This document shows positions 6,654 to 35,082 of a DNA stretch of 39,691 bases, one piece after another. The position numbers and the translations under genes are program-made. The notes beneath the pieces were generated by a model. It did not search any database. It saw nothing but the letters and a program-made list of their open reading frames with translations, and was not told the DNA's origin. Origin of the DNA: Candidatus Ornithomonoglobus sp. (lineage in GTDB: Bacteria > Bacillota > Clostridia > UBA1381); assembly GCA_051874315.1 (NCBI GenBank), contig JBJEFT010000113.1, positions 1 through 39,691 of the forward strand. Reading direction: 5' to 3'. Position 1 is the first letter of the stretch; each line of letters begins with the position of its first letter.

Positions 6654-6687
6654 GATACATTTTTAATGTGAGATGAACCAATTTTAA
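6654..6687 (-). promoter_or_regulatory. Bipartite direct-repeat operator abutting the -35 box (site A)
   Basis: Minus strand: TTAAAATTGGTTC-atctcaca-TTAAAAATGTATC, immediately followed by the -35 box TTGGAT. The same layout occurs at three other promoters. Confidence 0.6.
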
Positions 6688-6710
6688 TTAATTGCAAATA
6701 ATATACCGAC

Positions 6711-6745
6711 AAAAAACGGAGAGGTCTGCATCTCAGACCTCTCCG
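6711..6745 (-). terminator. Rho-independent terminator after the PL11 gene
   Basis: Minus strand: 12-bp perfect stem CGGAGAGGTCTG / CAGACCTCTCCG with a 5-nt loop, then UUUUUU (A-run 6711-6716 on the plus strand). Confidence 0.9.
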
Positions 6746-6747
6746 GC

Positions 6748-6770
6748 TTATATTATATTATATTATATTA
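6748..6770. repeat. (TATTA)n pentanucleotide repeat, about 4.5 units, overlapping the PL11 stop codon
   Basis: Direct read: tta-tatta-tatta-tatta-tatta. Confidence 0.85.
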
Positions 6771-9700
6771 TTGAACACCTATTGCGCTCATCTCGGTTAT
6801 TTCGCAAGGCTCGTTATCAAGCAGTTCAAGCTTGATTGAGTCAACATATTTCGGCACGGAGAATATAAATGTCTGAGCATCATCGCTGCCGTCGCTTGTC
6901 GCTTCAATTACATTCTGCCAGCCGTCACGGTTTGAAGGATCCTTTTGATCCTCCTCAGGAATATCATAGCGTGTATAAATCCTGAACGGATGCTCTTTGC
7001 CGTCCGCGAACTTGATTATAACCGCGCTTATCGGATTTTTATCCGTCCGCATCATTATTATGCCCCTGCCGTCCGACTTCCATGAGGTGTCATAGTTAAG
7101 GTCGCACGCGGCCCGCCCGTCGCCTGTGTCGGTATATACCTGTGTCACGCCAGCCTGCGTGCCGGTCATTTTCTCGCCGTTTACATATGCCTTGTCGCCC
7201 TTCGGCTGCAATGCCCTTGATGTTTTAATTGTTTCCAATATCGCATCAGCGTCTGTCGTTGCCTCAACATCGCTTATTACAATAACTCCGTTATCGTTCC
7301 ATTCAACCTTTTTATTGAGAGCTTCAGCCGCCATTCTGAGCGGTATAAAGGTTCTGTCACTCTTTATCTCAGGAGCCGCATCCATCGTTTTTGCCGCTCC
7401 GTTTACGGTGTAATCCTCGCTTCCTATTGTCATTATAATATCGGCATCAGGACTCTGAATTTTCACTGCTCTCGTTTGCTCGTCCCATGTAACATACGCG
7501 CCGAACGCCTCGGATATAAAGCGTATCGGAACCATCGTCCTATCATTGTCAATATACGGCGCAAGTGTGTTATCGCCGTCAATATAGTACGGCGCGCCGT
7601 CTATGAGCGCCTTGGGATAACCTATCGCAAGCTCCACTACTGCTCCTGTATAAAGGTCTGATATATTCCATTCTTTTTTTGCAAGGTCGGGGTTTCTTAT
7701 CTCGTTTCCATCCTCATCAACAACATAAATCTGCGGCACAGGTATCGACTTTGTATCGTAACCCAAGCAGTAATCAACATGAGTCGGCTGATTATAGCCT
7801 ACATTCTGAACAGCTGCAGAGTTTCTGTACTGGTTGTCTGACATAAGCGTGGGTATTCTGTACCCTGTCGGAATTGTGGTAGTGTAAATTCTAAGCTCCG
7901 AGTTATCGAGAGTCGGGTATACTACCTCCTCTCGCCAGTCGCCTATAATATCGGCGGCAAGCGACGGATTTGACTTTGCCGCATTGTTTGAATGGCACTC
8001 TGTCGCTGAGAATATATCCTCAACCTTATAAGTATACGGATTGTATTTTGAAATATTTATACCGTCAAGAACCTCGCGTCCCGTATCGCCGTCCCACCAC
8101 GCCAGGAAATTCGCAGGTATGCTGTAATTATCTGTTATAAGCTCGCCGTCAGCTGCAATAAGCAGACCGATTGACGACCAGCTTTCCGCGCCCGCATGAG
8201 TCGGGTCTATATCATCGCAGCCGCCGCGTCCTACATCAAGAGCGGTTTTGGGCGATGACCATAAAATCTCGCCTGTGCGCGCGTCCTTCATCTCGTGACC
8301 GTACGTTCCGCCCTCGTGAACTGTGAAAATCTCAAGTCCCGGACGGTCGGGAACCAAGTCGCCCATATGCTGCGCGTCACCGTGGTATAATTCATTATCG
8401 GTATACAGCGGTGTTCCGTTATCATCAAATGTCTCCGAACCGAATATTATCTCATCCTTACCGTCATAGTCTACATCCGCAACGCATAAGGAGTGGTTGC
8501 CCTTACCGATATATTTTTTTGCCTCATCAGCGTCCAAGAAATCGGTATCAAAAATCCAGTCGTTTACTATTTTATTGTCCCTCACGCTGTATGCCGCAAG
8601 AACTGTTTTCGCATAATAGCCTCTCGCGAACATCATTGACGGTGTTTTTCCGTCCTCATAGAACACGCACGCATTATACCGCTCGGAGCGGTTGCCCCAG
8701 TTATCGCCCCATGAATTTATGTCCCATTTCACACCGTTGCGCTCGCCAACGGACTGCGGATAATAATCAGTCGTGTCAATAACCGCGCCGGTTTCGCCGT
8801 CAAACAGAGTTAAGTAGAGAGGGCCGCTTAAATTCTTGCCGTTAATATCGCGCCAGTCCTTTGTTCCGTCGCCTATTACCGTGCCATCTCCGGCAACCGT
8901 CCCGTCAGCAGTGCGCATAGCAACCTCGCCCTTGCCGTCATTATTGAAGTCCGCACATAAGAACTGAGTGTCGTGTGCGCCGCTCCGAACATTTATTCCC
9001 AGATCAATTCTCCACAGCTTTGTTCCGTCAAGCTTGTACGCGTCAAAGATTGTGCTGCCGGTCGCACCTAAATGAGAACTGTCGCGTGAGTTTGTCGGAT
9101 CCCATTTCAATATTATTTCAAACTCTCCGTCTCCGTCAAGATCGGCTGCAGAGCAGTCGTTGGCGTTATAGCTGTAGGTTTGCTCTTGTCCGTCGGGAAG
9201 AATTACCGTTCCGCCCTTTGGCACATCAAGCTTGATACCGATATAGTCGTTGTTAAGCAGCGCGGCTTCATCGCAGCGAATGCCTTCCTCTCCGTTTATA
9301 ACAGGGGCAACACTGTACTTATCCCCCGCACTCGCATCACAGTCTATGTAATTTGTCGTATTAAGCGGCTCAGCATTCAGCTTTTCACCGTTTTTATAGA
9401 GATTATACATAGTGTCCGCGCTCTCTGTTCCGAGCCAGCGCCACGAAATAAAGCCGTATGCTTCTGTTGAAGCAGCTACAAGTCCCCTGTCGAGATTTTC
9501 CATGCGTCTTTGGACATCAGGGCGGCTGTCTATAAGCCTTTGTGTTTCGCTTCCGTCAGAAATGTCTTTATAAACAGTAAGCTGCTCCGGCTCCGGAGGA
9601 ACATCACCTATTTCAGCATACTCCGCGTCAGCCGTATCTTTCAAAAGTTCCTCACCCAAGGCTGTTATGACAATGTTATCAACATACGCGAACGCGCCGG

Positions 9701-10346
9701 GATCTGTCTGGTACGGAGTGTATCCAATACGTGTTATCGGTTCTTTTACATCCGAGTACGCGTAGCCGCCGCCCTCGGTCTCAATATATACCGCACCGTC
9801 CTTGTAGACGGTCATGGTATTATTTTTCCATTCAAGCTTAAAATTATGCCATTCCTTCTTTATGGAAGCATACTCACCGTCCTTTGTAAATTTTTTCTCA
9901 TCATTTACAAGTCCCTCCGTAACTGACGACGCGCCGCTGTCCGGGAAGAAGTATATACCTGTTATGCCGTTTCCGAACCTATCCGTTGTACCGGTATAGA
10001 AAGCATAGCGGAAGCCCTGCGACATTCCGTACCAGTCAAAAGCCACAGTCCATTCGTCCTTCATTGTGTACTTTCCGTTTTCATAATCATAAAGGTACGA
10101 TGACGGAATGTCTATATACGGATTTCTTCCTTTAACTATGTCGTTACCTCTGTTTGTATCAAACCCGTTGAGATAAAAGATATTTCCCTTGTCCGCGCCC
10201 GTAGGATCGGAAATAACCTCAATGCCGCCGGAGCCGCCGTAAATGCTCATAGGCGAGGAGTCCTCGGCAGATGCCGGCAGTGCGGCTGCCATGCCCGAAA
10301 GCATGGAAGCCGCTGCCGTTAGACTTATTAACTTTTTGAACTTCAT
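6768..10346 (-). CDS. Secreted polysaccharide lyase family 11 (rhamnogalacturonan lyase, YesW/YesX-like) with an N-terminal LamG-like domain and C-terminal copper-amine-oxidase-N-like and discoidin/F5-8-type-C-like domains
   Basis: 1,192 aa with ATG at 10346, an AAGGAGGAA RBS and a TAA stop. Signal peptide: MKFKKLISLTAAASMLSGMAAALPASA. PL11 hallmarks: RRMENLDRGLVAA...FISWRWLGTE, DLDGDGEFEIILKWDPTNSRDSS, and repeated DxDxDG propeller calcium sites. Stalk-like domain: DRTMVPIRFISEAFGAYVTWDE...DRTFIPLRMAAEALNKKVEWND. Confidence 0.85.
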   Translation of the reverse strand: MKFKKLISLTAAASMLSGMAAALPASAEDSSPMSIYGGSGGIEVISDPTGADKGNIFYLNGFDTNRGNDIVKGRNPYIDIPSSYLYDYENGKYTMKDEWTVAFDWYGMSQGFRYAFYTGTTDRFGNGITGIYFFPDSGASSVTEGLVNDEKKFTKDGEYASIKKEWHNFKLEWKNNTMTVYKDGAVYIETEGGGYAYSDVKEPITRIGYTPYQTDPGAFAYVDNIVITALGEELLKDTADAEYAEIGDVPPEPEQLTVYKDISDGSETQRLIDSRPDVQRRMENLDRGLVAASTEAYGFISWRWLGTESADTMYNLYKNGEKLNAEPLNTTNYIDCDASAGDKYSVAPVINGEEGIRCDEAALLNNDYIGIKLDVPKGGTVILPDGQEQTYSYNANDCSAADLDGDGEFEIILKWDPTNSRDSSHLGATGSTIFDAYKLDGTKLWRIDLGINVRSGAHDTQFLCADFNNDGKGEVAMRTADGTVAGDGTVIGDGTKDWRDINGKNLSGPLYLTLFDGETGAVIDTTDYYPQSVGERNGVKWDINSWGDNWGNRSERYNACVFYEDGKTPSMMFARGYYAKTVLAAYSVRDNKIVNDWIFDTDFLDADEAKKYIGKGNHSLCVADVDYDGKDEIIFGSETFDDNGTPLYTDNELYHGDAQHMGDLVPDRPGLEIFTVHEGGTYGHEMKDARTGEILWSSPKTALDVGRGGCDDIDPTHAGAESWSSIGLLIAADGELITDNYSIPANFLAWWDGDTGREVLDGINISKYNPYTYKVEDIFSATECHSNNAAKSNPSLAADIIGDWREEVVYPTLDNSELRIYTTTIPTGYRIPTLMSDNQYRNSAAVQNVGYNQPTHVDYCLGYDTKSIPVPQIYVVDEDGNEIRNPDLAKKEWNISDLYTGAVVELAIGYPKALIDGAPYYIDGDNTLAPYIDNDRTMVPIRFISEAFGAYVTWDEQTRAVKIQSPDADIIMTIGSEDYTVNGAAKTMDAAPEIKSDRTFIPLRMAAEALNKKVEWNDNGVIVISDVEATTDADAILETIKTSRALQPKGDKAYVNGEKMTGTQAGVTQVYTDTGDGRAACDLNYDTSWKSDGRGIIMMRTDKNPISAVIIKFADGKEHPFRIYTRYDIPEEDQKDPSNRDGWQNVIEATSDGSDDAQTFIFSVPKYVDSIKLELLDNEPCEITEMSAIGVQ

Positions 10347-10371
10347 AATTCATTCCTCCTTATGAAAATTC

Positions 10372-13300
10372 TTAATTTATGACTTTTTCAATAACAGCTT
10401 GCGCCGGGTTCATTTTATCCTTTTCCCATACCATGAATTTAACTATATAGTTTTTATCCGGATTAATTGTCACCGTTTCACTCATTGCATTTTTACTAAC
10501 CTGCATCAGAGCACCGTCCTCGTCATAAACAACTGTGTACACGTCATACAGCTCGCTGTCGAATGAATCTCCGCCTGTAAGCTCGTATATGATCGAATCC
10601 TCGTTTACTTCAAACCTCGTTACAGAAATGAGTCTGTCCTCGATTTCACCGCTTGTGTGTATACGCAATACGGCAAATGTATTTGACGGAACGGTGTAAT
10701 CGCCGCCGTTTACAAAGCTTATATCAGATTTAACGGGACTGATATTATCCGGATCTGAAATGCTGTTCACATCCGCCTTACTCTCGCCCGTGAGTATCTC
10801 TTGAGCTGCCGTTCCGCTCAGCTTAAATGCGTCAGATACGGAAATACTCGTTCTTAAATCATTCTCGTACGGATTTACAAGCTTTACAATAATATCTCCG
10901 CTTTCCTTGTCATATGATACAGTCTGATAGATTTTGTCCATACCTGTAACAGCTGATGTTCGGAGAGTGAAGTCACCGTTGTTATTCGAATACATACTCT
11001 GTACATAATAATTCGGAGTAGCATAGCTTACCATATCGTCAAACCATATTAAATCGGGTGCCCATTGATTATATCCGATTCTTGACAGCAGCGGAGCGTA
11101 GCTCGCCATGTATACGACATCCGCGTTTCTTTCAAGACCCGTCATATAAGCAGCTTCAGCTATCGCACTTTCAAGATTGTTCTTCTTTACCGCATCGTTT
11201 GAAAGTGATGAATGCGCGGCATATTCTCCGGCAAACACCTTTGTGCCTCTGTCATAATTATCATAGCGCGTGTCATTTTCAAGGAACCACTGCGGGCTCA
11301 TATAATAATGCTCGTCAACCGCATATGTAAAGCTGCTGTTCTCAGCCTGCTTTTCTCTTATCCAATTCCATGCCGTGTCGAACCCTGTGCCGCTCGCGCT
11401 CGGTCCTGATGTAGAAATCAATCTGATATCGGGATATACCTTATGGATTTCCTTCTCAAACGCTTCATAGCGTTCGAACCATTTGTTATCTCCGATTACC
11501 CACTGCTCGTTTCCTATGCCTATCATCGTAAGATTAAACGGCTCGCTGTGTCCCATTTCGGCTCTTAGACTGCCCCATTTTGTGGTCGTGTCACCGTTTG
11601 CAAATTCAACGAGATCGAGAGCATCCTGAATGTACTCGTAAAACTCCTCAGTATATGAGCCGTCCTCATTATACATCTCTACCGCGGAGCCGTATCTTCC
11701 GCCCTGATACTCGCACGGAATACCTACGCTCAGTACAGGCAGCGGGTCGCAGCCGAGATATTCGCATAACTCAAAATATTCATAGAAGCCCAGTCCCAAA
11801 GTCTGATTGTAGTTCGGATAAGCCGTATCAGCGGCCCATCTGTTCCAGTTCTGTACTCTTTCCTCCACCGGTCCTACTGAACTCTTCCACTGATAGCGGT
11901 CTGTAAGATCATATCCCTCTACAACGCAGCCGCCGGGAAATCTTAAAAATCCCGGATTTATCGCTTTGAGCTTTTCCGCAAGGTCACGTCTGAACACACC
12001 GCTCAGCGCATCCGACGGCATTACGGATATCATATCAAAGTCAACCTTGCCCTCGTTGCTTAGCTCAACGATAAAGTCACTGTATCGAACCGAATTCTGC
12101 GCGGTCAGTTCCTTCTCATATTTAGTCCACTTATCCGTTACGCTGTCTGCTATAATGCCCTCAAAGCCGGTTACTCCGTTCTTTTCGGTTTTTACGCTTA
12201 CCGCTCCGTTGTATCCGGAAGCCTTTGCGTAAAATGACACCTTGTATTTTTTATCCTTTTCAATGTACATTCCCCTATACGCCTGATTTTTAAAGGAGCT
12301 TCCTGTAAATTCAAGATATGTAGGGTTCTTTTCATTTAACGGACTGTCCTTCTTATAGTCCATAGTTCCGTTTACCGCGCTCCATGCGTAGCCCGGATTT
12401 TCCGCTACCTCTTTGCCTTTCGATACCGTTGTTGATATCTGCTCAAAGGAACGGTTTTCAATCATTTCCGCGTACAGTCCTCCGTCAGCGGCATAATTGA
12501 TATCCTCAAAGAACAGGCCATACATATTATCCTGTATATCAACACCCTTATTCTCCGAAATATTCAATTTGAGGTCATAATAGTTTGTGCCTCTTACAAC
12601 CGCGTCAAATCTGCGGGTTAATACAGTATTGCCGAAGGTAATGGTTGCGGTAAGAGTTACGTCCTTCTTTCCGTCTGACGGCCGCGTTACCTTACCCGTC
12701 TCAGAAATCACATCCGGATCCGAGCTTTCCCAGGTAATTGTATATCCGTCAGCATCTTCAATTGCTGTGGGCAGCGCCAGATCTTCCTTAACATCGCTCA
12801 AATCTCCGAGCTGTATACTCGGTCCGAAATCGTAAACCGCTATATCGTCGAACATACCCTTTGCGTATTCTCCGCTTCCCCAGTTCGCTTTTCCGAAATA
12901 GGTTACTATGTTATCGCCGTTTCCGAGGATTGTAGAAAGTGTATGGTCCTCGCCTGAGGCTGCATAGTCCGCGCTTCCGGCATATGTGCCGTCAATATAA
13001 AGCTCCGCTGTGTAATTGTCAATTATATATGTGATTTCATGCCAGCGGTCAAATGAAGTGTTTGCGGTTATTGTAGGTGTGCCGGAATTGTTTCTGTACC
13101 GCTCCGCAACCGTTTTACCATCCGAGCCGCATAAAATTCCGGTATAGCTGCGGCTTCTGTTACTCTGCGCTGCGTCGTTCCATGCCGTATAGAAATACCA
13201 GCCGTTCGTTGCACCCTTTTCCAATTTGGCACGCATGGTAATTACGGCTTTATCCATTCCCCTAAGCAGCGGCGTGCCGTCGGTGTTGGCCGCTGAAATA

Positions 13301-16300
13301 TATGCCGTGCTGCCGTCAAGCACAGCCGCCTGACTGCCGTCGTCTCCGGCAGCATACTCGATATTGCCGCAGCCTGTCGCTTTACCCTTAAGCGCGTTTG
13401 TCGATTTATCATTGAAGTCTACAGCAAATATTAAATGCTCATTTTCAGCATCAATATCCGGTCTTTTCTCAGGCTTGCTGTATATACTCAGCTGTCCGTA
13501 ATACTGTTTATTATTACTTTCAATCGCGCCTACGCCGTTTCTGTGTCCCGAATAGTATTCCGTGCTTACAGGAACTCCGCCTATATAGGTTTCAACGGTA
13601 TAGTAGTCGCCCGTATACGAGTCAACCGTTCCTGTTTCGTTCTTTATAATAATTGTGCATATCTCGTGCTGCGTATATGTTCTGTGTCCGGTATTATCCT
13701 TGTCCGAGCCGTCAGATACTTCTGTTTTCAAATAATTCGGCAGTCTGCTCACACCGTATGCATCCCTTACAGTACCGCCGAAGCTTCTTTCTCCGTGTCC
13801 TACCCAGAATCCGTCGCTGCCCGGCGCATAGCAGTATCCGATTATGGCATTTCCGGCAATGTCGCGTATGATGTTATCGCCGCCGGAATTTGACGCCATA
13901 TCAAACTGAATCGCCGTCCACTCTCTTCCCGCGCCGTAGCCGCCGCCCATTGTCATGCCGCCGTTTATTCCCAGATAGTGATAAGTATCATTATCAAGGC
14001 TCTTATCGCTCGGCAGCGTCCAGCCGTCGGGATAATTCGGATATGACTGAGCTATATCGAACACCTTATTATTTGCATTTATATACTCTGATAAATCAAC
14101 CGCCTGACTTATCGGGTATGCCTCTGTCAGCGCGTTGTATTCGTCCTGAGTAATAGGAATTATTCCGCCGTGCTTGGCATATGAGCGCATTTTGAAGCCG
14201 CTTGTTACTCTTGTAAAATCGAACTGTTCCTGACCGTTCAAATCATCAATGGTGTTCGGAAAAAATCCCACACCCGCATTTGGAGCTCTGTAGCCGTCAA
14301 GCATCAGACAGTATTTAGCTCCCAACTTCTCTGCGTCATCCTTATTGAATTTAAACCACCCCGGTCCCTCTGTGCCGAGGAAAGTATTATTGCCGAGGTT
14401 TGTATTCGCTCTTGTAAACGCTCCGAGAGGATGATCCGCAACATCCATAAACACGCGGGTCGGAGAAACATCCTCATATTTTGTAACGCGGTAAAATTTA
14501 CCGTCGCTTCCCTCAATCATGGACGTATCAATAAAGCTGTCGCTTGTTCCGACTTCCGTACCATCGGTTTCGGCAGGGATTACAAATCTCTTTTGCGGGG
14601 TGAACGAATAAAAATCACGGGTTTTTGAATAATATACCACCTTTTTGCCGTAGCTCTCGCTGCTCTCATTGATATCATGTCCCGACCAGTACACGATATA
14701 TTCACCCGTCAGTTCATCGTAAATTGTCTCCGGCGCCCACGCGCAGCCGGTATTATCATCCGCGATCTGCACCATCCTTTGTTTTGACCAGTGCACAAGA
14801 TCGTCCGACTCCCATATCATCAGACTCTTGCTGCCATTTGTCGAAAAATCACCCCATCTTCCTGAGGTCGCGTCAAGGTCGGTCGCAAGCAAATAGAATT
14901 TATCTCCTTCGGGCGAACGCACCAAATAGTGATCGCGCAGACCGTATGTTCCCATTGACGAGGTTAAAACTGCTTTGTTGTAGTTAATGTCAAACCAGTT
15001 CAAGCCATCGTCAGATACCGCGAAAAATGTCTGCTGATAATTTCTCGACACCGCCGGCTCAATGAACGAAGCGTAAAGATACGCTTTAAAGTCGCCGTCC
15101 TCTTCCATTTCCTTATAGGTCTTTTCCGACTTCGCTTTTACGGTAACGGGATATTCTTTTGAATATGTCACACCGTCCGCCTCTATGGAAGCCGTGAGTA
15201 TGATTTTTGTATCCTCGTTCGGTCTGTTTACAACGCCAGCCGGAATTGATGTGTAGTTTTCGCCGTACTCAGCCTTTTCCTCTGCCGTAAATTCCTTTTG
15301 CTCCGTACTGATTACAGATTCATCGCTCGATTGCCATACAATCACATTTCCGTCAAGCTCCTCCGGCAGTGTAATATTGCCCGAAATCTTATAGCCGTAA
15401 TCTGTGTACGGCAGCTTTAACCCGTCAAGCGGATTATCGGAGAATTTGTTCGACAAGTCAATATATCCGTATTCGTCAAAAAGCTTTTGCAGCTCACTTT
15501 CTGAAATCGGAATTACGTAGCCGTGGCGAGGTGTGAAATCATAATCGATTAAAACTTCCTCTGCACCTCTTCCGCCGATCTGCTTATAATTTACAAAATC
15601 CGTTGTTTCAAACACGAGATAACCTGTGCCGAATGCGTCGCCGTCGGCGCAGTAAATCCACTTGTCCTCGTTATTAAGCTTGAAAATATTTGAACCCTCA
15701 GACCTGTACGAAGTAAACGGGGACGCGCCTTGATAAATACCCTCGCCGTCCTCCGAAAGCTCGGTATATGTGCCGTCAATAGTTTCGCATGCCGCGACGC
15801 GAACTCCGTCAAAATACATAAGATAACGGTCATTTATTTCATCATAAATAATATCTCCGTCAATCGCACCTGCCGCACGGTAATCTCCGTTTTCTTCACC
15901 TGTAAGCATAAATTCCGGCTCTGTATATGTATCGGCGTCCATCAAATCAGTGGCAAAATGCTTATACATAATCGTTCCGAGCTCGCCTGCCGTGGAAGCA
16001 TTCATAATCGCCAGATAAATCATATATGCGCCCTTAGTACCGTCGCCGTTATCATGCTCCGGACACCAGATAATCTGCGGAGCCCATGCGCGATTGCAAT
16101 CGGCAAATCCATCAAAATTCTTGTAGTCAATCAGAATTTCATCGTCAATATTTATTAAATCCTTTGTTTTATAAATTGCGATAGTGGATTGACTCGCCCA
16201 GCCCTTAGCGGAGTTCATATCTGTTACAACTATATAAAAATAGCCGTCCGGTCCCTCATATATAAACGGGTCTCTGAGATGCTTTGTTCCCAAGGTTGAG

Positions 16301-16515: not shown

Positions 16516-16583
16516 AGAATACACTCTCCTATCTTATTTTAAATACTAAATGTTCCTCTTATCATTTTCTTATATATTCCTAT

Positions 16584-26196: not shown

Positions 26197-26288
26197 CTTA
26201 ACTTCTCCCTCATATAATAAGTGTAATAGTTTTTAGAGTTCCTCTCCAAGAAACGTAAAATAATTTATTGTATCCAAAAGCGTGAACC

Positions 26289-29200
26289 CTATTGAATTTC
26301 TTGTACAATCGGATCGTATTTTGTTTTCATATCCGTCCAGAAGAATACTTTTACCGTATATTTTTCGTCTTCGGTTATTATAAATTCACCTGCGGATTCG
26401 TTCATCTTCACTTCAAGCAATACGCCGTCCTTATCGTAGAGAGCAACATACATATCGCAGTCCGCATTTTCTCCGTATTCCGAAGTATATAAAAGCCTGC
26501 TTGGCGATGATGTTATTTCTACCGTTTCCGGCAAGGTCCTTTCAGACTGATTTCCACCCATATTCTCGGGATCATCCGTTGTTGTATACATTCTCCTGTA
26601 CGGAACGGTGCAGCTCTCCTCATCATATGCCGCAAGCCTTATGGAGATAATGTTAAGGCCTGTCGATGCATCGGTCTGCGTGCTGCCAAGAACCGCCTCA
26701 CGCGGAATTTCAATCAGCTTATTTGCAAAACCGCCCTTGCCGTCCTTTACCTCCATATAGTCATTGCCGTCTATTACAAGCTCCGTATCTCCGGCAAATA
26801 TCTTAAATTTGACATCATATGTTTTTGAGCCGCAGGTAACTGTGCTGTCGGTATCGAAATATCTTATTATGAGATAATTCTTTTCAGCATTTTTATCAAC
26901 AAGCATATTATATTTGAAGAAGCCGCCCTCGCCGAACGCATATCGGTATTGCCCGTTATTATCCGCCCCCTGTACCGAATGGCTGCGGAACTCCGTTGTC
27001 TCCTCCGTGCTCTGTATCATTCCGTGACCAAGCTCCGACTGCTGACCGTCCGGGTCAACATAGTCAAGCTGAACATTGCTGAGGTTTATACCATAGTCGT
27101 CAATAGCTGTGTCAATATCAAAATAGATATTGTGATAATTATGCGTAATATCTATAAACGGAACAAGCTCCACGTCCCTGCCGGTAGAATTCTTATCCGC
27201 CGCAAGAGTGAATTTAAGCGTTCCCGATCCGCCTGTTTTTGATACATATTCCGTTATATCGTCAGTTGTTTTTATACCCTTGCCGTCAGAGGTTCTGAGT
27301 ACAGGATACGCAACCTGCTGACAGGCGGTGTTTCTTTCCTCCCAGATATACTCATATGACGGCTTAATCGTACCGTTAAGCTTTGCCGCGAGAACCATAG
27401 GACCGTATTCGTACGCTACCTTTACATTATCACGCGATTTATACAGGCTCACGCCCATGGGAATTGTAAGCTCTATTACATCGCCGTTCTTAATACCGTT
27501 AAGCGTTATGTATTCACCGCCGTCCGATACTGCCTTACGCTCATTATTAACGGCTGCGGTCATCTGCTTATTCTGATCGCTGAGCCATCCGGGCGCACGC
27601 AGCTTAACATTCCCTGTCTTATCTCCGCCGGTGACGGTTATTTTAACCGTTTCCTCGTATGGATAATTTGTTTCCACATTAAAGGTCATACCCTTGCCCG
27701 CCCATGTATATGTTCCGGGCATATAAAGGTTTACATACAAATCGTCATTGTCCTCGAAATATGTCACGCGCGTATATCTGCCCGGATTTTCCATGCCTGT
27801 ACCCGTGCAGCACCACCACGCGTTATACTTCTGCTCATAAATCCTGTGAGTGCCCTGCACCATGGATACAAAATACATCTTTGCGCCGGTTTCAGGCTCC
27901 TGCTGACCGAGAACATGATTATACAGAGCGCGCTCGTACCAGTCCATATACTCGCTTCTGTGCTCCCACGAGAATAAATGCTCCGTAAGACGCATCATAT
28001 TATAGGTATTGCAGCTTTCGCATGATTTAACACCCAATTCCTCCGTTCCCACAGGCTGGAAATACTCGCCCAGGGAGTTTCCGCCTATAGCGTAGCAGCG
28101 CTCATAGTTTACATTCCTCCAGAAATTCTCGCAGGCGGTTCTGTAATCGGCATAGGCAGCGGTGTCCTGCTCATAAAGCTCAGCCGCTCCGACGAATTTC
28201 GGTATCTGAGTATTGGCATGCTTACCGCTGAGCGACGCAGTGTTGTTCGTCTTTAACGGGTCGATAATAGAATCATGGGTAAAACGGCGCGATGTGTTTT
28301 TATACAGCTCATCACCCGTAATCTCATACATTCTCGCAAAAATCTCGTTTATGCCGCCGTATTCAATATTAAGCACGCTCTGCATCTGCGTATCGCTAAG
28401 CCCCGCCGTGCCGGCTGCCGCCCAGTCAGACAGCTTTTTGAGCACACCGTATGCCTTGAACGCAAGCTCCGGCTCAGCATAATCGTACACATCAAGAAGT
28501 CCCTGATATACCTTGTGGATATTATACCACGGCACCCAGTATTTGCCCAGCCAGCTTCCGTTTCCGGCGAAGCAGTTTATAAACGGTATCTCGTCGCAGC
28601 CGCCTATATATTCTTTATTAACGGTAGCCGTCCAGCCGGTGGGTATATCCGTGTTCTGCAGCTCGTCAAGCTTATCAATCACATACTCCATTTTATCGTG
28701 AATATTACGCGGAGTAACCGTTATATCCCCCTTTTCCGCAGGAGCGGTATCCGAGGTGTCATTTCCGTTTAAGGACGCGGCTGGAAGCGCAATAGCTTCA
28801 TTATTCTTTAAATCATTGTAGAACACTGCCGCTGATGACAGCCAATGTCCCATCTGCTGTCCGGCAAGAGTATTGTGAGGAACATTATTCGCCTTCCACG
28901 CTCCGAGAGCCTCCCAGCCGCCGTAGCGTTTAACCCTGTCGCCGGCCTTTTTATCACCGTTCTTAACAGCCTCGTCATCAGCTTCGTAGGTAAGCGTCAG
29001 TCCGTGAACCTCATATGACGGAGCTACAAGCCGCGGCAGGTCAATGCCCATGATATATCCCAGACCCACGCGTTCGCTTTCATCAAGACGGCTGCCGTTC
29101 TTCAGTTTAATCTGAGAGGAATCGGCATAATCTGACGCGCTTACAATTTCACGCTCGCATTCCGCTATAACATCTCCGTTCCTTTTAAGTGCTGATTTTA

Positions 29201-31436
29201 CCGTGACGCGCCCGTATGCCTTAAGCGGCAGTCTTACGCCCGCAGTTTTGCCTCCAAGCGACCGAACCTCCTCCGATGTGAGGGTTTTGCTCAGCTCCCC
29301 GCCGATAAGCGTACCCTGATCATCATACGCGCCGACGGTTATCGTCAGATCATCCTCTCCCGCGGTTTCTTTCGCCGTGATATTATAAAGTGCGTCGGCA
29401 TATTCAATGCCCGTATTCTTAACAAAGTTTATAGCTGTTCCCACGGAATAGTTCGGATCCTTTGACGCGCTGATAATGCGGACATTAGCCGTTATACCTA
29501 TCTCTGTTCCGTAAATATCGGCAGTACCGTGAACCGTATAATCGCCCTCAACGCTGCCGTCGGGTATTTCCGACTCGCTCCAGGTCACAGACGCGCAGGA
29601 GGTAATGCCGTTTTCAAATATAACATTCACTCTGTCCGGCAGAATTACAGCCGAGCTTACTCCGAATGTCAGATTGGGATTTTCAACAGACTTTATCGCC
29701 TGCATTGTATTCATCATTTCCGTTTTAACCTCTTCAGCTGTAAGCGCGTAGTTGTATATTGCTATTTCATCAACTGCGCCCCTGTATACGGGATCGCGCG
29801 GATACTGTGATTTTCCTATATAATTCTTCTCCGAATTGCGCAGCCCATACATTCTCGAATTAATCGAGCCTGTTCCGGCTTCCCTGCCGTTTATATATAT
29901 TTTTGCCGTTTTATTCTCAAGAGTAACGGTAACATACGACCAGCTGTTTCTTTCAAGCAGTCTTGTACCGTATACAATCTCCTCGTTTCCTCCGTCATGC
30001 TTTACCGCAAGGCGCGGAGCGCCGTTGCCCTGGTTGAGCGTAAGGAATATATAATTACTCTCGTTTGAGCCGAAATCGAACAGACGCTCCCATGTTCCCA
30101 ACTCCGACGGATTTATCCACGCGGAAAATGTAAAGCTGTCGCGCAGCGGAAAGGAATCAAGCGCGGCATAACCGCCCGTAAAATCAACGGCGTTATTCTT
30201 CTGCCCGATCGTAATCCCGCTGTCGCCGAAATAGCCGATACCGCTTTCATTTTTATCGTCCATGGTGAAAGAAAGCAGCTTTTGCTTATCCTCAAATTCT
30301 GCCGTTACCATGACGTCCTCCGACGGCATTGTGAACTCAAAGGTGTTGCTGCCCGTCATATTTTCAAAAAAGCTTGAGCCGTTCACTTGCATATCAACCA
30401 GAACCTTATCCTCCGGCACTGTTACTGACGCTGTGATTTTCTCTCCCGGTGATGCGGCTGTTTTGTTTAAGGTAACATTGTCTCCGCCGGCAATATTATA
30501 GCTTAACGTACCGAGAACCGTGGCGATATATTCCCGTTCAAGCGCCCTGTCGCCGTAGCTTATAGTGGCGGTCAGAGTTACCTCTGTTGTTTCCTCCTGT
30601 CTCGTTACCGTTCCGTTATCAGTTATGACCGATGGATCTGAGCTTTCCCATGTGATTGTGTAACCCTCACCCCCAGACTGAGTAAGCTGTATATCCTCTG
30701 TCACAGCTGATAAATCGCCAAGCTCTATCGATGGCGCGAACGAGTAAACCGAAACACTGTCTATAAGACCCTGAAACAGCTCCCTGTCATTCCATGCCGA
30801 TCTCCCGACATAAAATATCTGCTCGTCACTGTCGCCGAGAATAGTCTGCAGCTCTCGCCCGCTGTATTCTCTCGTTCCTATCAGTTTGTTATTAATATAC
30901 AAGTCCGTGTGATCCCTTGCAATAACAACATCTATATTCTGCCAGTCCGCCGAACCCTGAGTTTTTATTTTCTCACTGTCGTTACCGTCGTTGTAAACCC
31001 ATCTCTCGTAATTTATCGTGTTGCCGCCGTCATAATACATACCGGTGTATATGCGGTATCTGCCGTTAGGCACACCGCTGTTGGGCGCGGCATAAAAGAA
31101 CCAGCTGTTTATATTATGCGTTTCGTTTTTTGTTCGCATTGAAACGGTAATCTCATCCTCACCCTTCAGAAGAGGAGTTCCGTCCTCTTTTGTAAGATTG
31201 AAATAAGCTGAGCTTCCGTCAAAACGCGCTGCATAATTACCGTCGTCAGTCGGTTCATAGGTAATGTTTCCGAACGCTTCAAGCTTACCCTTTTCGACCA
31301 TTGCTCCGTCGCTGCTGAAGCATGCCGAGAACAATACAGGGGAATTGTCAGGGGTATTGTCAGCTGAAACTCCCACGAACGCGGACGATACTACAGCGGC
31401 GGATAACACTATGCTCATACATTTCTTTGCCTTCAT
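26289..31436 (-). CDS. Secreted 1,715-aa enzyme. Order: LamG-like, Ig-like modules, second LamG-like, Big_4-like, GH127/GH146-type (DUF1680) beta-L-arabinofuranosidase, beta-sandwich, shared C-terminal module
   Basis: AAAGGAGGA RBS, signal peptide MKAKKCMSIVLSAAVVSSAFVGVSA, and a TAG stop. GH127/146 hallmarks: HANTQIPKF, SCESCNTYNM, WWCCTGTGMENPGRY (Cys-rich zinc/catalytic motif), YVNLYMPG. Confidence 0.85.
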   Translation of the reverse strand: MKAKKCMSIVLSAAVVSSAFVGVSADNTPDNSPVLFSACFSSDGAMVEKGKLEAFGNITYEPTDDGNYAARFDGSSAYFNLTKEDGTPLLKGEDEITVSMRTKNETHNINSWFFYAAPNSGVPNGRYRIYTGMYYDGGNTINYERWVYNDGNDSEKIKTQGSADWQNIDVVIARDHTDLYINNKLIGTREYSGRELQTILGDSDEQIFYVGRSAWNDRELFQGLIDSVSVYSFAPSIELGDLSAVTEDIQLTQSGGEGYTITWESSDPSVITDNGTVTRQEETTEVTLTATISYGDRALEREYIATVLGTLSYNIAGGDNVTLNKTAASPGEKITASVTVPEDKVLVDMQVNGSSFFENMTGSNTFEFTMPSEDVMVTAEFEDKQKLLSFTMDDKNESGIGYFGDSGITIGQKNNAVDFTGGYAALDSFPLRDSFTFSAWINPSELGTWERLFDFGSNESNYIFLTLNQGNGAPRLAVKHDGGNEEIVYGTRLLERNSWSYVTVTLENKTAKIYINGREAGTGSINSRMYGLRNSEKNYIGKSQYPRDPVYRGAVDEIAIYNYALTAEEVKTEMMNTMQAIKSVENPNLTFGVSSAVILPDRVNVIFENGITSCASVTWSESEIPDGSVEGDYTVHGTADIYGTEIGITANVRIISASKDPNYSVGTAINFVKNTGIEYADALYNITAKETAGEDDLTITVGAYDDQGTLIGGELSKTLTSEEVRSLGGKTAGVRLPLKAYGRVTVKSALKRNGDVIAECEREIVSASDYADSSQIKLKNGSRLDESERVGLGYIMGIDLPRLVAPSYEVHGLTLTYEADDEAVKNGDKKAGDRVKRYGGWEALGAWKANNVPHNTLAGQQMGHWLSSAAVFYNDLKNNEAIALPAASLNGNDTSDTAPAEKGDITVTPRNIHDKMEYVIDKLDELQNTDIPTGWTATVNKEYIGGCDEIPFINCFAGNGSWLGKYWVPWYNIHKVYQGLLDVYDYAEPELAFKAYGVLKKLSDWAAAGTAGLSDTQMQSVLNIEYGGINEIFARMYEITGDELYKNTSRRFTHDSIIDPLKTNNTASLSGKHANTQIPKFVGAAELYEQDTAAYADYRTACENFWRNVNYERCYAIGGNSLGEYFQPVGTEELGVKSCESCNTYNMMRLTEHLFSWEHRSEYMDWYERALYNHVLGQQEPETGAKMYFVSMVQGTHRIYEQKYNAWWCCTGTGMENPGRYTRVTYFEDNDDLYVNLYMPGTYTWAGKGMTFNVETNYPYEETVKITVTGGDKTGNVKLRAPGWLSDQNKQMTAAVNNERKAVSDGGEYITLNGIKNGDVIELTIPMGVSLYKSRDNVKVAYEYGPMVLAAKLNGTIKPSYEYIWEERNTACQQVAYPVLRTSDGKGIKTTDDITEYVSKTGGSGTLKFTLAADKNSTGRDVELVPFIDITHNYHNIYFDIDTAIDDYGINLSNVQLDYVDPDGQQSELGHGMIQSTEETTEFRSHSVQGADNNGQYRYAFGEGGFFKYNMLVDKNAEKNYLIIRYFDTDSTVTCGSKTYDVKFKIFAGDTELVIDGNDYMEVKDGKGGFANKLIEIPREAVLGSTQTDASTGLNIISIRLAAYDEESCTVPYRRMYTTTDDPENMGGNQSERTLPETVEITSSPSRLLYTSEYGENADCDMYVALYDKDGVLLEVKMNESAGEFIITEDEKYTVKVFFWTDMKTKYDPIVQEIQ
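26292..26522 (-). other. Shared ~80-aa C-terminal module, copy M5
   Basis: VEITSSPSRLLYTSEYGENADCDMYVALYDKDGVLLEVKMNESAGEFIITEDEKYTVKVFFWTDMKTKYDPIVQEIQ, followed by the stop. Confidence 0.8.
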
Positions 31437-31530
31437 AAGTAAATCCTCCTTTTTATTGTTTTTATTAATTATATTTAATTATTTACTTGTAAAATCTGTT
31501 CAGCTTCTGTCAACACTTGCGCCGTATCGT

Positions 31531-33264
31531 TTAATCAGCATTTTTCAGCTCGTCAAGCACAGGTCTGTCCAAAAATTCCGCCAGCGGCTTTTCCGCCGGA
31601 TATAAATCTAAAATCACAAGCTCATTGCGTCCCTTTGTAAGAACACCTGCCGGCACATATAAGGTCTGCTGAGGTCCTATGCTTCGGTATCTTCCGAGAT
31701 TAAAGCCGTTTATCACGGCAAAGCCATGCGTAAAGCCGCTCGGCCTTAAAAATGTGTCGCAAGGCTCATCAATGATAAATTCGGCTCTGTATATTATCGG
31801 CTGCGGATATGACACGCCTTCCGAAAGCGGCGGTATTTTATCCATTTCAAAGCAGTGTATATCGTAGACTTCTATCTCTTGTCCGCCGATTTTCACATTG
31901 CTTAGCAGTCCTTTTCTGTCAAATATGCGCTGTCCGTAGTTTACACGCCCCAGGTTTTCTACCAGTATTGTAAGACGTTTCGCGCCGGATATAAATATCG
32001 GCGCGTAATCCGTTCCACGCTCATGAACGCCTATATACCGACCGTCAGCATAGAGCATAACGCGGTCACGCCGCTTGCCTATATCGATTTCACCGCTCAT
32101 ACCGTCTATGTCAGCCTCATACATTATGTATCCGTAGCTCTGTGAGCATTCCTCCATGCTTCTTACAGGACTGTTTTTATATGCTCTGCCTAATACATCT
32201 TTGTTATCAAACAATCCCGAAGCGATGAATTCTGTTACAGCAGGATATGCCCTTGTACCCGTATCGTCACTCGTTTCTCCGTCTCCTGTGAGCATTTGCT
32301 TTATCAGCTCATACTGACGCGTGGATGCGCCGTATTCTGTGAGTGCGGCACCGTAGTCATAGCTTGTGATACACGGCTCAAAGTGCGGATTGCAGTTGGA
32401 GCCGTTCATAAACCCGAAATTAGTTCCGCCGCTGAACATATATATGCTGAAATGTCCGCCCTGCTCGATTATCCGCTTAAGCTCATCAACGACGCTTTGC
32501 GGCTCACGCGTGTGGTGCACAACGCCCCACTGGTCAAACCAGCCGTTCCAGAACTCCATGCAGCATTTCGGCTCACCCGGTCTCAGCAGCTCAAGCTTTT
32601 CGAATGCCTCGTCCGAATGTGACCCGAAATTGGCAGTCATAAGCACGCCGTCTATAGAGCCGTTTTCAAGACAATCATTCCATGTTCCGTCCGAGGTGAA
32701 CAGCAGCACATCATCCGCGCCCAGCTCATGATACATTTTCCGCAGCTTTTTAAGGTATTCCGCGTCTGGTCTGCCGAATCCGCCGAACTCGTTCTCAATC
32801 TGCATAGCGATTATTCCGCCGCCGTTTGAAAGGAAATGCGGACGGCATATGTCCATCACCCATGAGAGATACCGGCGCACACATTCAAGATACGGCGCAT
32901 TGTCGCGTCTTAGCTCAATGCCTTCAATATTCATCAGCCACGGTGGAAATCCGCCCATTTCCCATTCCGCGCATATGTACGGACCGGGACGTATTATGAC
33001 ATACAGTCCCAGAGTCTCCGCAATTTCTATAAACCGCTCAAAATCCGCCGTTCCCTCGCTTATAAATTTGCCGCGCTCCGGCTCCTGAATATTCCATGCG
33101 ATATATGTTTCAACGGTATTTAACCCGCATTCCTTCAGCTTTATAAGCCTGCGCTCCCAGTCTGACGGGTGGATACGAAAATAATGCACCGCGCCCGCGC
33201 GTATATAAAATTCACTGCCGTTCATAAACAGTTTATCGCCTTGTATTATTAATTTTCCGCTCAT
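31531..33264 (-). CDS. GH35 beta-galactosidase, probably cytoplasmic
   Basis: 577 aa with no signal peptide. GH35 hallmarks: AVHYFRIHPSDWERRL, LNTVETYIAWNIQEP, IIRPGPYICAEWEMGGFPPWL, QIENEFG (acid/base), CMEFWNGWFDQWG (nucleophile). Confidence 0.92.
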   Translation of the reverse strand: MSGKLIIQGDKLFMNGSEFYIRAGAVHYFRIHPSDWERRLIKLKECGLNTVETYIAWNIQEPERGKFISEGTADFERFIEIAETLGLYVIIRPGPYICAEWEMGGFPPWLMNIEGIELRRDNAPYLECVRRYLSWVMDICRPHFLSNGGGIIAMQIENEFGGFGRPDAEYLKKLRKMYHELGADDVLLFTSDGTWNDCLENGSIDGVLMTANFGSHSDEAFEKLELLRPGEPKCCMEFWNGWFDQWGVVHHTREPQSVVDELKRIIEQGGHFSIYMFSGGTNFGFMNGSNCNPHFEPCITSYDYGAALTEYGASTRQYELIKQMLTGDGETSDDTGTRAYPAVTEFIASGLFDNKDVLGRAYKNSPVRSMEECSQSYGYIMYEADIDGMSGEIDIGKRRDRVMLYADGRYIGVHERGTDYAPIFISGAKRLTILVENLGRVNYGQRIFDRKGLLSNVKIGGQEIEVYDIHCFEMDKIPPLSEGVSYPQPIIYRAEFIIDEPCDTFLRPSGFTHGFAVINGFNLGRYRSIGPQQTLYVPAGVLTKGRNELVILDLYPAEKPLAEFLDRPVLDELKNAD

Positions 33265-33298
33265 AGTCCGATTCGCTCCTATCCGATAAATAAATTCT

Positions 33299-33320
33299 GA
33301 ACGGGCAAAAACGCCCGTTC
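33299..33320 (-). promoter_or_regulatory. 8-bp stem-loop in the GH35 5' leader
   Basis: Minus strand: GAACGGGC-guuuuu-GCCCGUUC. It lies between the predicted promoter and the RBS. There is no clear U-tract, so it is not called a terminator. Confidence 0.4.
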
Positions 33321-33377
33321 GCAGTTTAAAAGAAGAGAGAAATGTAATTTGACAATTATTTTATTACTGTCACTATT

Positions 33378-33405
33378 ATTATATCATTAGGGCTGATTAT
33401 ATCAA
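33378..33405 (-). promoter_or_regulatory. Sigma-A-type promoter of the GH35 gene, probably driving the GH35-GH127-downstream operon
   Basis: Minus strand: TTGATA (33405-33400), 16-nt spacer, TATAAT (33383-33378). Confidence 0.65.
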
Positions 33406-33439
33406 TATACTATTTTAAACTCTGCTGAACCGATTTTAA
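33406..33439 (-). promoter_or_regulatory. Bipartite direct-repeat operator abutting the -35 box (site C)
   Basis: Minus strand: TTAAAATCGGTTC-agcagagt-TTAAAATAGTATA, then the -35 box TTGATA. Confidence 0.6.
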
Positions 33440-33592: not shown

Positions 33593-33763
33593 TTACCATG
33601 TAAACATCATGATTTTCTCCGCTTCTACGTTTTGATCTGTAAGCATTTTTTTCGCTGCTGCTGCCGCCTGTATTCCCTGCTGCTCTGTGCCGCTTGTTGT
33701 CACTATGTTTACAGAGCCAAATCTGTAGACGCTGATTTGCGGACTTATAAATGTCTTTTTCAT
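33593..33763 (-). CDS. Small 56-aa protein of unknown function, co-transcribed with the upstream secreted repeat protein
   Basis: The start is placed at ATG 33763, with GGAGGTG 7 nt upstream; the ORF-track start at 33784 overlaps the upstream gene. Product: MKKTFISPQISVYRFGSVNIVTTSGTEQQGIQAAAAAKKMLTDQNVEAEKIMMFTW. There is no signal peptide and no Cys. A terminator follows. Confidence 0.55.
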   Translation of the reverse strand: MKKTFISPQISVYRFGSVNIVTTSGTEQQGIQAAAAAKKMLTDQNVEAEKIMMFTW

Positions 33764-33780
33764 ATATTCACACCTCCGAA

Positions 33781-34926
33781 TCATTCTACCGTCGCTGTCG
33801 CAATAGCGTTACTGTCATCCAATCCGTTTACAACAAGACCGAATAATGCTGTCGCCGAATCGCCGTCAAGAGTTATTGTTCCTACATTGTAGCTTTCTGT
33901 TGTCTTTGGCTCTTCACTGCCGCTTGTTATAGTCCACGAAATCGTGCTGAATGTTCCCTTACCGCTTACCGTGGTCTTAAACGCAGTAGCTGTTGTTTCT
34001 GCATAATCCTCTGTACCGGAGAATGCACCTATATTTTCTACATCAGCAGTCAATGTTTCTGCTTCCTTCTCCGCATATATAAGCGTTACACTGTTAATAT
34101 ATGTTTCCTGCGTTTCATCGATAATGGTTAAGCTCTTTACACCTGTTTCAGTGCTGTTTATAACAATTTCATTATCATAACTATTCCAGTTACTCCTACC
34201 TTCATGAGAACATGAGCCGATTTCAGCTTCGCCAATTTTTGCTGTAAATTTTTCTTGGTATTTTGAAGCTGCATTAATAACAATAGCAGAAAGGTTTGTC
34301 ATATCAGCATCAAATGTAAGTGTCGCTTGTGTACCATTATTAATATGTCTTAACTGCTTTTGATCTCCATTTTTATCGCCGCTAAATGTGATGGATTTTG
34401 ATATATTGCCATCAGCATCAAACAAACTTAAGCTATAACTGTTGCTGTATACCAGAGTAACACTGTTAATATACGTTTCCGTCGTTGTATCTTCAATAGT
34501 TACTGCTTTATCGCCGATTTCTGTAGTTGTTACCGGAATTTCTACATCATAATCATTCCAATTATTTCTTCCGCCTTGAGATACCGTTCCAATTACACTA
34601 TCACCTATTTTAACACTATAGACTTCAGAATTTCTTGTTGCACCGTTAACAACAATCTTTTCAAGCGTTGTCACATTTGCTGTAAAACTCATTGATAATG
34701 TTTTTTCATCACCCTTATATATCAACTGTGGCCTTCCATTGTTTTGAAAATCTCCATTCCAATTAAGACTATCCAAAGCATCGGACTCTGCTTGATTAAA
34801 AAGAGTCACTTGCGCTTCTGTTTTCTGAGCCTCAGCTGCACCTGCCGAAACCGACATCGCTGTAAATGTTGATACCGATACCGCCGCTGCTAAAAATAGC
34901 GACACAATTTTTTTTAGTTTTAACAT
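33781..34926 (-). CDS. Secreted 381-aa non-catalytic protein with two tandem ~124-aa CBM-like repeats and a distinct C-terminal domain; function unknown
   Basis: GAGGAG RBS, signal peptide MLKLKKIVSLFLAAAVSVSTFTAMSVSAGAAEA, and a TGA stop. The repeats end ...GGRNNWNDYDVEIPV...KAVTIEDTTTETYINSVTLVYS and ...EGRSNWNSYDNEIVI...KSLTIIDETQETYINSVTLIYA. Confidence 0.85.
   Translation of the reverse strand: MLKLKKIVSLFLAAAVSVSTFTAMSVSAGAAEAQKTEAQVTLFNQAESDALDSLNWNGDFQNNGRPQLIYKGDEKTLSMSFTANVTTLEKIVVNGATRNSEVYSVKIGDSVIGTVSQGGRNNWNDYDVEIPVTTTEIGDKAVTIEDTTTETYINSVTLVYSNSYSLSLFDADGNISKSITFSGDKNGDQKQLRHINNGTQATLTFDADMTNLSAIVINAASKYQEKFTAKIGEAEIGSCSHEGRSNWNSYDNEIVINSTETGVKSLTIIDETQETYINSVTLIYAEKEAETLTADVENIGAFSGTEDYAETTATAFKTTVSGKGTFSTISWTITSGSEEPKTTESYNVGTITLDGDSATALFGLVVNGLDDSNAIATATVE
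34075..34820 (-). repeat. Intragenic tandem duplication, 2 x ~372 nt, encoding the two CBM-like repeats
   Basis: The period is 372 nt. It is measured between the two ETYINSVTL(V/I)Y-encoding segments, near 34447 and 34075. Confidence 0.75.
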
Positions 34927-35019
34927 TTTGAAAATCTCCTCTCTTTTAATCCCATTCTCAGGGAATTTATCAGAGTAAACGGTTCGTCCGTGCCATTACT
35001 CTAAATTTGTTTTATATCT

Positions 35020-35048
35020 ATTGTACATCCTCTTCTCCCAAGTTTCAA
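35020..35048 (-). promoter_or_regulatory. Sigma-A-type promoter of the 381-aa gene
   Basis: Minus strand: TTGAAA (35048-35043), 17-nt spacer, TACAAT (35025-35020). Confidence 0.65.
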
Positions 35049-35082
35049 GATACGATTTTAATGTATCTTGAACTTTTTTTCG
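35049..35082 (-). promoter_or_regulatory. Bipartite operator (site D, distal half degenerate). It also forms a 10-bp palindrome with a T-run on the plus strand
   Basis: Minus strand: cgAAAAaaaGTTC-aagataca-TTAAAATCGTATC, then the -35 box TTGAAA. Plus strand: TTCAAGATAC-gattttaat-GTATCTTGAA-CTTTTTTT. Confidence 0.5.

Follow-up and report, generated by a model that had tools for sequence, protein, structure and literature searches.

Candidate direct-repeat operators of a local AraC-family regulator in a Clostridia carbohydrate-active enzyme gene cluster

Four promoters in a 39.7-kb stretch of Clostridia DNA (contig JBJEFT010000113.1, positions 1 to 39,691; "the window" refers to this whole stretch) share a bipartite direct-repeat element set directly against the −35 box. 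The window is a cluster of minus-strand carbohydrate-active enzyme (CAZyme) genes, and the AraC-family gene at 35161–36045 on the plus strand is the sole regulator among its 13 large open reading frames (ORFs), as an earlier note on this DNA had claimed. Judged from sequence comparison, the four sites are probably operators of this AraC/XylS-family regulator, serving as promoter-proximal, class II-like activator sites. The same assignment, to the adjacent regulator and a local CAZyme regulon, was proposed in the earlier note and is supported here by six of seven orthologue lineages, by a further GH35 locus (L145) and by the cupin and double helix-turn-helix (HTH) domains of the protein. That the regulator binds the sites and activates, instead of repressing, transcription, what its effector is and how far the operons extend are all inferred.

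The four sites (A–D, Table 1) match the earlier description letter for letter, in coordinates as in minus-strand orientation. The starts of the two 13-bp half-sites are exactly 21 bp apart in all four, the proximal box stops one base before the −35 hexamer begins, and the −35 and −10 boxes are separated by 17, 17, 16 and 17 nt in A to D, again as described. All four sites are intergenic, on the strand that codes for the cluster, and each follows either a terminator or the divergent regulator gene. A consensus promoter scan independently recovered promoters B, C and D, with promoter A (a 3/6 −35 box) falling under the scan threshold. A position weight matrix (PWM) and inspection of upstream regions revealed no equivalent site upstream of 16524 (given as 16515 in the earlier note) or 26196, in line with what had been reported, and no weaker site above background was present in the upstream regions of the other window genes.

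The sites stand well apart from background. Allowing three or fewer mismatches, the bipartite pattern matched four times in the window against 0.27 matches expected, and none of 100 shuffles reached four; the half-site pattern matched nine times against 0.49 expected. The PWM singled out only the four sites, at 27–36 bits, with the runner-up in the window at 14.0 bits and a shuffled-window maximum of 15.3 bits. Across 1.75 million positions of unrelated DNA, a single 21-bp tandem array (L119) reached 15 bits. This array (837–1037) holds about 8–9 copies of the 21-bp unit CCTGCAAGTTTAAAATAGSTT, is iteron-like, and was matched through its 21-bp period alone.

A scan of metagenome contigs for the core TTAAAATnGGTTC-N8-TTAAAA gave at least 119 unrelated matches. 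Among the 119 listed, none carried a −35/−10 pair at the fixed offset and none at shifted offsets, compared with an in-register promoter at all three core-matching sites of the window, hence the register is not a by-product of A/T-rich boxes. Lacking an in-register promoter among those listed, the metagenome matches were rejected as further sites of the motif and seemingly arose by chance. Occurrence at background frequency with no fixed register to promoters, set beforehand as the outcome that would count against the idea, was therefore not what the shuffles, the PWM and the unrelated core matches gave.

Across 11–12 sites the consensus reads TTAAAATaGGTTc for the distal and TTAAAATaGTgtA for the proximal half-site, and the operator can be modelled as TTAAAATnGGTTC-N8-TTAAAATnGTnnA, abutting the −35 box. 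Box positions carry 0.7–2.0 bits each, with G30 and T31 invariant, compared with about 0.1 bits at spacer positions 14–18. The A and G at positions 19–20, right before the proximal box, are also conserved, and G is conserved at positions 9–10 and 20. The mutual likeness of the half-sites peaks at an offset of 21 bp (column correlation, r = 0.74–0.78), and the 21-bp spacing is exact in 8/8 orthologue sites as in the four of the window. At 12/12 sites the proximal box abuts a TTG-type hexamer with TATAAT or TACAAT 16–17 nt further on, all of these being predicted promoters. Each half-site comprises two recognition elements, TTAAAAT and GKnTM, approximately one helical turn apart, an arrangement that would suit a double-HTH domain of the AraC type, as in the MarA–DNA structure.

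Conservation of the motif at orthologous loci, which the earlier note had suggested checking, was found both beside regulator orthologues and at one target. We compared the contigs of nine regulator homologues, treating as independent the seven lineages L001, L002, L003, L004-6, L007-9, L010 and L012, and leaving L011, with only 83 bp of upstream sequence, uncounted. The regulator was divergent from a degradative gene wherever its upstream region was on the contig. This gene encodes a GH35 in L001, a GH127 in L002, a 1360-aa protein in L003 and a GH43 in L004-6; its product is secreted and, by eye, GH43-like in L007-9 and is an alpha/beta hydrolase in L010, and the gene in L012 is unassigned. 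A loose pattern was used for the search (a T[TC]AAAA start, a fixed 34-bp frame, T[TG][GA]NNN, a 16–18 nt spacer and TANNNT), with an expectation of about 0.07 matches per 1.9 kb of AT-rich intergenic DNA. The same architecture and register were present at the divergent promoter in six of the seven lineages (regulators of 39–78% identity), L010 being the exception to this co-occurrence of operator and regulator, and every operator pointed to the target gene. The pattern places no constraint on the proximal boxes, yet these were related (TTAAAATAGTGAA, TTAAAAACGTGTA, TTCATTTCGTGCA, TTCATATAGTACA, TTAAAATAGTGAC, TGAATATAGTGCA and TCAATATGGTTTA), and all seven carried G-T at positions 9–10.

The search from the target side covered four GH35 orthologue loci (L145, L147, L148 and L149). 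In L145 (66% identity) an in-register site, TTAAAATCGTTCC-N8-TTAAAATAGGATA followed by TTGCAG-17-TATAAT (25.3 bits), stands before a GH35–GH43 operon. A PWM built from the four window sites only gave 23 bits for L001, 19 for L002, 26 for L007a and 23 for L145, then 13 for L007b, 10 for L004, 3 for L012 and −4 for L003; leave-one-out site scores were 8–32 bits. The motif signal thus weakens in the more divergent lineages, as would be expected.

The regulator has the domains that a dimeric protein resembling AraC or RhaS would be expected to have. Its C-terminal part matches HTH_18 (PF12833, 2.3e-13; 50.7 bits, cut-off 33.6) and HTH_AraC (PF00165, 7.9e-11), giving a double-HTH domain, and residues 19–89 match the cupin-type AraC_binding domain (PF02311, 1e-6; 29 bits, cut-off 21.1), a weak match but above threshold, with the same domain precomputed for most orthologues. 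All 16 matches to NCBIfam equivalogs were far under their cut-offs (AryK 75 vs 850 bits, AraC 49 vs 208, MelR 35 vs 253, RhaS 32 vs 288), and by these scores the protein is not an orthologue of the characterised regulators (AraC, RhaS, MelR, AryK, PocR and others). Sequence matches in the PDB were to AraC-type DNA-binding domains only, for example MarA (1BL0). Close relatives are few: ten were found in a word-indexed search, and 24 clusters at E ≤ 1e-30 among 1.84 billion representatives, against 28,205 generic AraC-family matches. A C-terminal tail past the second HTH, KFNYKVNNPLYPK (the last 13 codons), is near-invariant in orthologues down to about 40% identity and is missing in the more distant AraC proteins of the alignment.

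Table 1. Positions of the direct-repeat sites, predicted promoters, genes and predicted transcription units in the window.
Feature	Position	Strand	Sequence or remark	Basis or score
Site A	6654–6687	minus	TTAAAATTGGTTC-N8-TTAAAAATGTATC, spacer ATCTCACA	PWM 30.4 bits
Promoter A (predicted)	6625–6653	minus	−35 TTGGAT, 17 nt, −10 TATAAT	
Site B	20177–20210	minus	TTAAAATCGGTTC-N8-TTAAAACAGTGTA, spacer GTTCTATA	PWM 34.8 bits
Promoter B (predicted)	20148–20176	minus	−35 TTAAAA, 17 nt, −10 TATAAT	
Site C	33406–33439	minus	TTAAAATCGGTTC-N8-TTAAAATAGTATA, spacer AGCAGAGT	PWM 36.4 bits
Promoter C (predicted)	33378–33405	minus	−35 TTGATA, 16 nt, −10 TATAAT with TG	11/12 consensus matches
Site D	35049–35082	minus	distal CGAAAAAAAGTTC (35070–35082), proximal TTAAAATCGTATC (35049–35061), spacer AAGATACA	
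Promoter D (predicted)	35020–35048	minus	−35 TTGAAA (35043–35048), 17 nt, −10 TACAAT (35020–35025)	
Regulator's own promoter (predicted)	35098–35126	plus	TTGACA-17-TACAAT, extended −10 TG	
AraC/XylS-family regulator	35161–36045	plus	294 aa	Pfam
GH43	356–1315	minus		
GH43, large, secreted	1546–6588	minus	predicted target of promoter A	Pfam
PL11-type rhamnogalacturonan lyase (RGL11)	6768–10346	minus		Pfam
GH51-like alpha-L-arabinofuranosidase	10372–16524	minus		Pfam
GH30 with ricin domains	16643–20095	minus		Pfam
LamG protein	20302–23979	minus		Pfam
Protein with carbohydrate-binding module (CBM)	24106–26196	minus		Pfam
GH127	26289–31436	minus		Pfam
GH35	31531–33264	minus		Pfam
Secreted 381-aa protein	33781–34926	minus	first target gene (predicted), divergent from regulator	no family match
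GH31	36138–38129			
LamG protein	38138–39646			
Promoter C unit (predicted extent)	20302–33264	minus	GH35, GH127, CBM protein, LamG protein	terminator 20241–20267
Promoter B unit (predicted extent)	6768–20095	minus	GH30, possible read-through to arabinofuranosidase and rhamnogalacturonan lyase	terminator 6717–6745

In the mechanism that we favour, the regulator would dimerise through its cupin N-terminal domain, and the double-HTH domain of each monomer would read one half-site of about 13–15 bp, with TTAAAAT followed by G(G/T)nT(C/A) about one turn along. Of the direct-repeat half-sites that would be occupied, the proximal one is at about −36 to −48 and the distal one, two helical turns (21 bp) further upstream, at about −57 to −69. 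Because the proximal half-site abuts the −35 hexamer, the protein bound there could contact RNA polymerase at these promoters, which would be sigma-A-type with poor −35 boxes. Judging from the enzymes of the window and the targets at orthologue loci (GH35, GH127, GH43), the likely inducer is a sugar or oligosaccharide set free when arabinogalactan or pectin side chains are broken down. Its signal would switch on at least four transcription units, with the GH43, GH30, GH35, GH127, arabinofuranosidase, rhamnogalacturonan lyase and secreted CBM-like protein among their products. Promoter D would serve the 381-aa gene and promoter A the large GH43 gene. Neither a further site nor a strong terminator was found between the genes of the promoter C unit; in the promoter B unit, a weak hairpin follows the end of the GH30 gene (16643), before the arabinofuranosidase gene.

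Several observations count against this reading. L010, whose regulator is 42% identical and lies beside the alpha/beta hydrolase, has no site, and neither do the GH35 orthologue loci L147, L148 and L149. The only AraC gene within 10 kb of the L145 site, 4.5 kb away, was rejected as an orthologue, with 25% identity confined to the DNA-binding domain. Site D, the nearest to the regulator, has a degenerate distal half-site, scoring 0.5 bits in the leave-one-out analysis (top ~1.2% of intergenic 13-mers) against 13.7 bits for its proximal half-site and 10–19 bits for the other sites. A perfect 10-bp inverted repeat, TTCAAGATAC-N9-GTATCTTGAA (35044–35072), also falls within site D and spans the −35 box of promoter D. 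Lastly, the promoters are predicted from consensus matches.

The L145 locus bears on the possibility that the sites are real operators bound by another factor encoded outside the window, such as an AraC paralogue or a response regulator with AraC-type output, with the adjacent regulator a mere neighbour. A good site there has no orthologous regulator within 10 kb, and AraC-type two-component regulators are common in CAZyme loci of Clostridia (PMC8579813). The site nevertheless adjoins orthologues of this regulator in six of seven lineages while the targets vary (GH35, GH127, GH43, large secreted proteins), and with the regulator constant and the targets changing, the regulator is the common element. 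We regard binding by an outside factor as quite unlikely.

Repression was also considered; the AraC family includes repressors and proteins with both activities. The adjacent regulator could bind the same sites as a repressor or dual regulator, occluding the −35 region when inducer is absent; the proximal half-site is flush with the −35 box, so that steric interference is possible, and the perfect TATAAT −10 boxes make some basal activity plausible. Promoter strength points the other way. At the 12 target promoters the −35 boxes keep TTG alone and match TTGACA at a mean of 3.8/6 positions, alongside near-perfect −10 boxes, whereas the regulators' own promoters at 6/7 loci have TTGACA, TTGACC or TTGACT (mean 5.7/6), 17–18 nt and an extended −10 box, TG-n-TAnAAT. 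As read from these boxes, the contrast would fit the usual picture of activator-dependent targets and a constitutively expressed regulator, and poor −35 boxes at 12 sites against near-consensus regulator promoters are a signature of activator dependence. In comparable regulons, moreover, sites upstream of promoter elements have been taken as activator sites (PMC8579813). A repressor or dual role at these sites appears improbable.

That no specific operator exists, and that the element is an AT-rich UP-element-like feature, chance, or promoter segments recently copied within the cluster, is highly improbable and largely refuted: the A/T-rich boxes do lie upstream of the −35 box, where UP elements sit, and a minor self-similarity peak occurs at an 11-bp offset (r = 0.52), but an UP element would be limited to A/T letters between about −40 and −60 and have no specific G/C positions, whereas the motif runs from about −36 to −69 with invariant G-T at fixed positions, does not occur at the strong regulator promoters that share these intergenic regions, is set apart from the listed unrelated core matches (0/119 with an in-register promoter), is kept across lineages with regulators only 39–60% identical, and combines conserved boxes with a free spacer, a pattern that speaks against recent duplication of promoter DNA.

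Returning to the regulator as the probable binding factor, the earlier note had further suggested that it might control its own gene through site D, with a gap of 16 nt between that site and the regulator −35 box. The gap measures 15 nt, and at six loci the distance from the distal box to the regulator −35 box is 8, 8, 10, 15, 20 and 21 bp, showing no fixed relation between operator and regulator promoter of the kind found in the autoregulated araC–araBAD system. With such a variable gap autoregulation lacks geometric support, and the regulator promoters are near consensus.

Inverted repeats as long as the 10-bp one in site D were reached in 18 of 2000 shuffles, and those in orthologue sites are at most 6 bp. 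On the plus strand a T-run, CTTTTTTT, comes after the repeat and just before the regulator promoter. It could be a second operator, an insulator terminator for the plus strand, or chance.

Two further arrangements were noted. In L007 (955–1153), and also in L008 and L009, two tandem full operator–promoter modules lie 165 bp apart between regulator and target. Behind the upstream copy, and ahead of the second one, come a ribosome-binding site, an ATG and an intrinsic terminator (CAGCGGCACG...CGTGCCGCTTTTT); the arrangement suggests a short transcript, a leader peptide or what is left of a gene since deleted. In the GH35 leaders of the window (33265–33372, minus strand), L001 (233–315) and L145 (9860–10000), downstream of the operator, a CU-rich tract (TCTCTCTT...) precedes a hairpin of very high stability (z = −2.5, −4.4 and −5.6, respectively) and a U-rich stretch. 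When the window and L145 leaders are folded, a purine-rich segment close to the ribosome-binding site is the pairing partner of the CU tract. The long leaders had no Rfam match at the gathering threshold, and the GH35 leader could work as an attenuator or a translational switch, or its hairpin could stabilise the mRNA.

A wider proposal draws these features together: a small, hitherto undescribed clade of AraC-family activators marked by the KFNYKVNNPLYPK tail would be the local master switch of CAZyme clusters for arabinogalactan and pectin side chains in a little-sampled group of uncultured Clostridia, with attenuators or translational switches in GH35 leaders adding another layer of control and the site D repeat as a second operator or insulator. 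We offer it tentatively, as a rather unlikely extension.

Twelve full-architecture matches in species-representative genomes were tried as members of a broader motif class and rejected, as they score only −0.4 to −18.7 bits at the positions that the pattern leaves free, where the true sites reach +7 to +15. Seven of them are in metagenome-assembled genomes (MAGs) of Clostridia, with TTG-type −35 boxes and upstream of genes that look sugar-related, and no regulator homologue was found within these loci. A direct repeat, TTAAAATAGTGTT-N8-TTAAAATTGTTGC followed by TTGTTn-17-TATAAT, is shared in near-identical form by three Ruminococcaceae/Eubacteriales MAGs (L013 4046–4108, L018 7321–7383 and L020 4950–5012), upstream of an orthologous 823-aa gene and with no AraC gene within 4 kb. 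It is probably the operator of another regulator, because its unforced positions differ from those of the window motif.

Some features of the cluster itself deserve mention. Among named relatives, those closest to the GH35 protein come from Clostridia MAGs (Candidatus Ornithomonoglobus, Oscillospiraceae) at 58–59% identity, and the best unnamed match is at 67%. The pattern scan of 185,579 species-representative genomes did not meet the locus, though three window sites fit the pattern. The DNA thus stems from a thinly sampled branch of the Clostridia, with no close relative in that genome collection. The secreted 381-aa protein encoded next to the regulator had no match in Pfam, NCBIfam or the PDB; by eye, and not by database match, its two internal repeats of about 130 aa have a CBM6/35-type look. 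Its gene is missing from L001, the closest orthologue locus, where GH35 adjoins the regulator. The mechanical start of the large GH43 ORF, a TTG at 6681, is inside site A. A GGAGG ribosome-binding site stands 8 nt before the in-frame GTG at 6588, which is the likely real start and gives an N-terminus, VKFKRII, like the MFKRI of the GH30 protein.

The layout of the sites is familiar from Escherichia coli and other well-studied systems. AraC at araI (I1–I2), XylS at Pm and MelR at pmelAB bind two direct-repeat half-sites 21 bp apart, the proximal one reaching the −35 region, and activate sugar-catabolic or related promoters. The window system shares with E. coli AraC, XylS and MelR the protein family, the plan of a ligand-binding/dimerisation domain with a double HTH, and the 21-bp direct repeats. 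It differs in that its half-site sequence (TTAAAATnGGTTC / TTAAAATnGTnnA) is unrelated and its proximal site abuts the −35 box without visible overlap; unlike E. coli AraC, no distant looping site resembling araO2 was found in the window. At the marbox of MarA, SoxS and Rob, a single double-HTH domain contacts two elements about one turn apart within a site of about 20 bp. The two-element layout is shared by the window half-site (TTAAAAT plus GKnTM), but MarA-type proteins are monomers on a single asymmetric site, in contrast to the tandem sites and N-terminal cupin of the window system.

Closer comparisons come from the Firmicutes, Clostridia-class organisms among them, for which comparative genomics has predicted AraC-family sugar regulons whose operators are direct or tandem repeats with a 21-bp periodicity, located upstream of promoter elements and taken as activator sites (PMC3870299, PMC8579813). 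At CAZyme loci of Caldicellulosiruptor, the AraC-family regulators are likewise assigned tandem repeats with large spacers upstream of promoter elements, again taken as activator sites (PMC8579813). In these regulons (RhaR in Bacillales and Enterococcus; PecR, HemR, XylQ and AxgR in Caldicellulosiruptor), as in the window, a local AraC regulator lies beside CAZyme or sugar genes. The window regulator, however, forms a separate orthologous group with the distinctive tail KFNYKVNNPLYPK, and its candidate targets are mostly very large secreted multidomain CAZymes, not transporters and cytoplasmic enzymes. A matching motif was not found in the text or supplements of PMC3870299 and PMC8579813, including the Caldicellulosiruptor regulon supplements, and a literature search on the motif string returned uninformative matches.

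The system is a new orthologous group with a new motif inside a well-known, textbook type of sugar-gene switch, and the understanding of how AraC-family regulators work is unchanged. What it provides is a concrete regulon model for a large arabinogalactan- and pectin-degrading cluster in uncultured Clostridia, comprising a regulator, an operator consensus, four promoters and probable operon boundaries. The motif could serve in inducible expression parts and can be used to spot co-regulated CAZymes in related MAGs.

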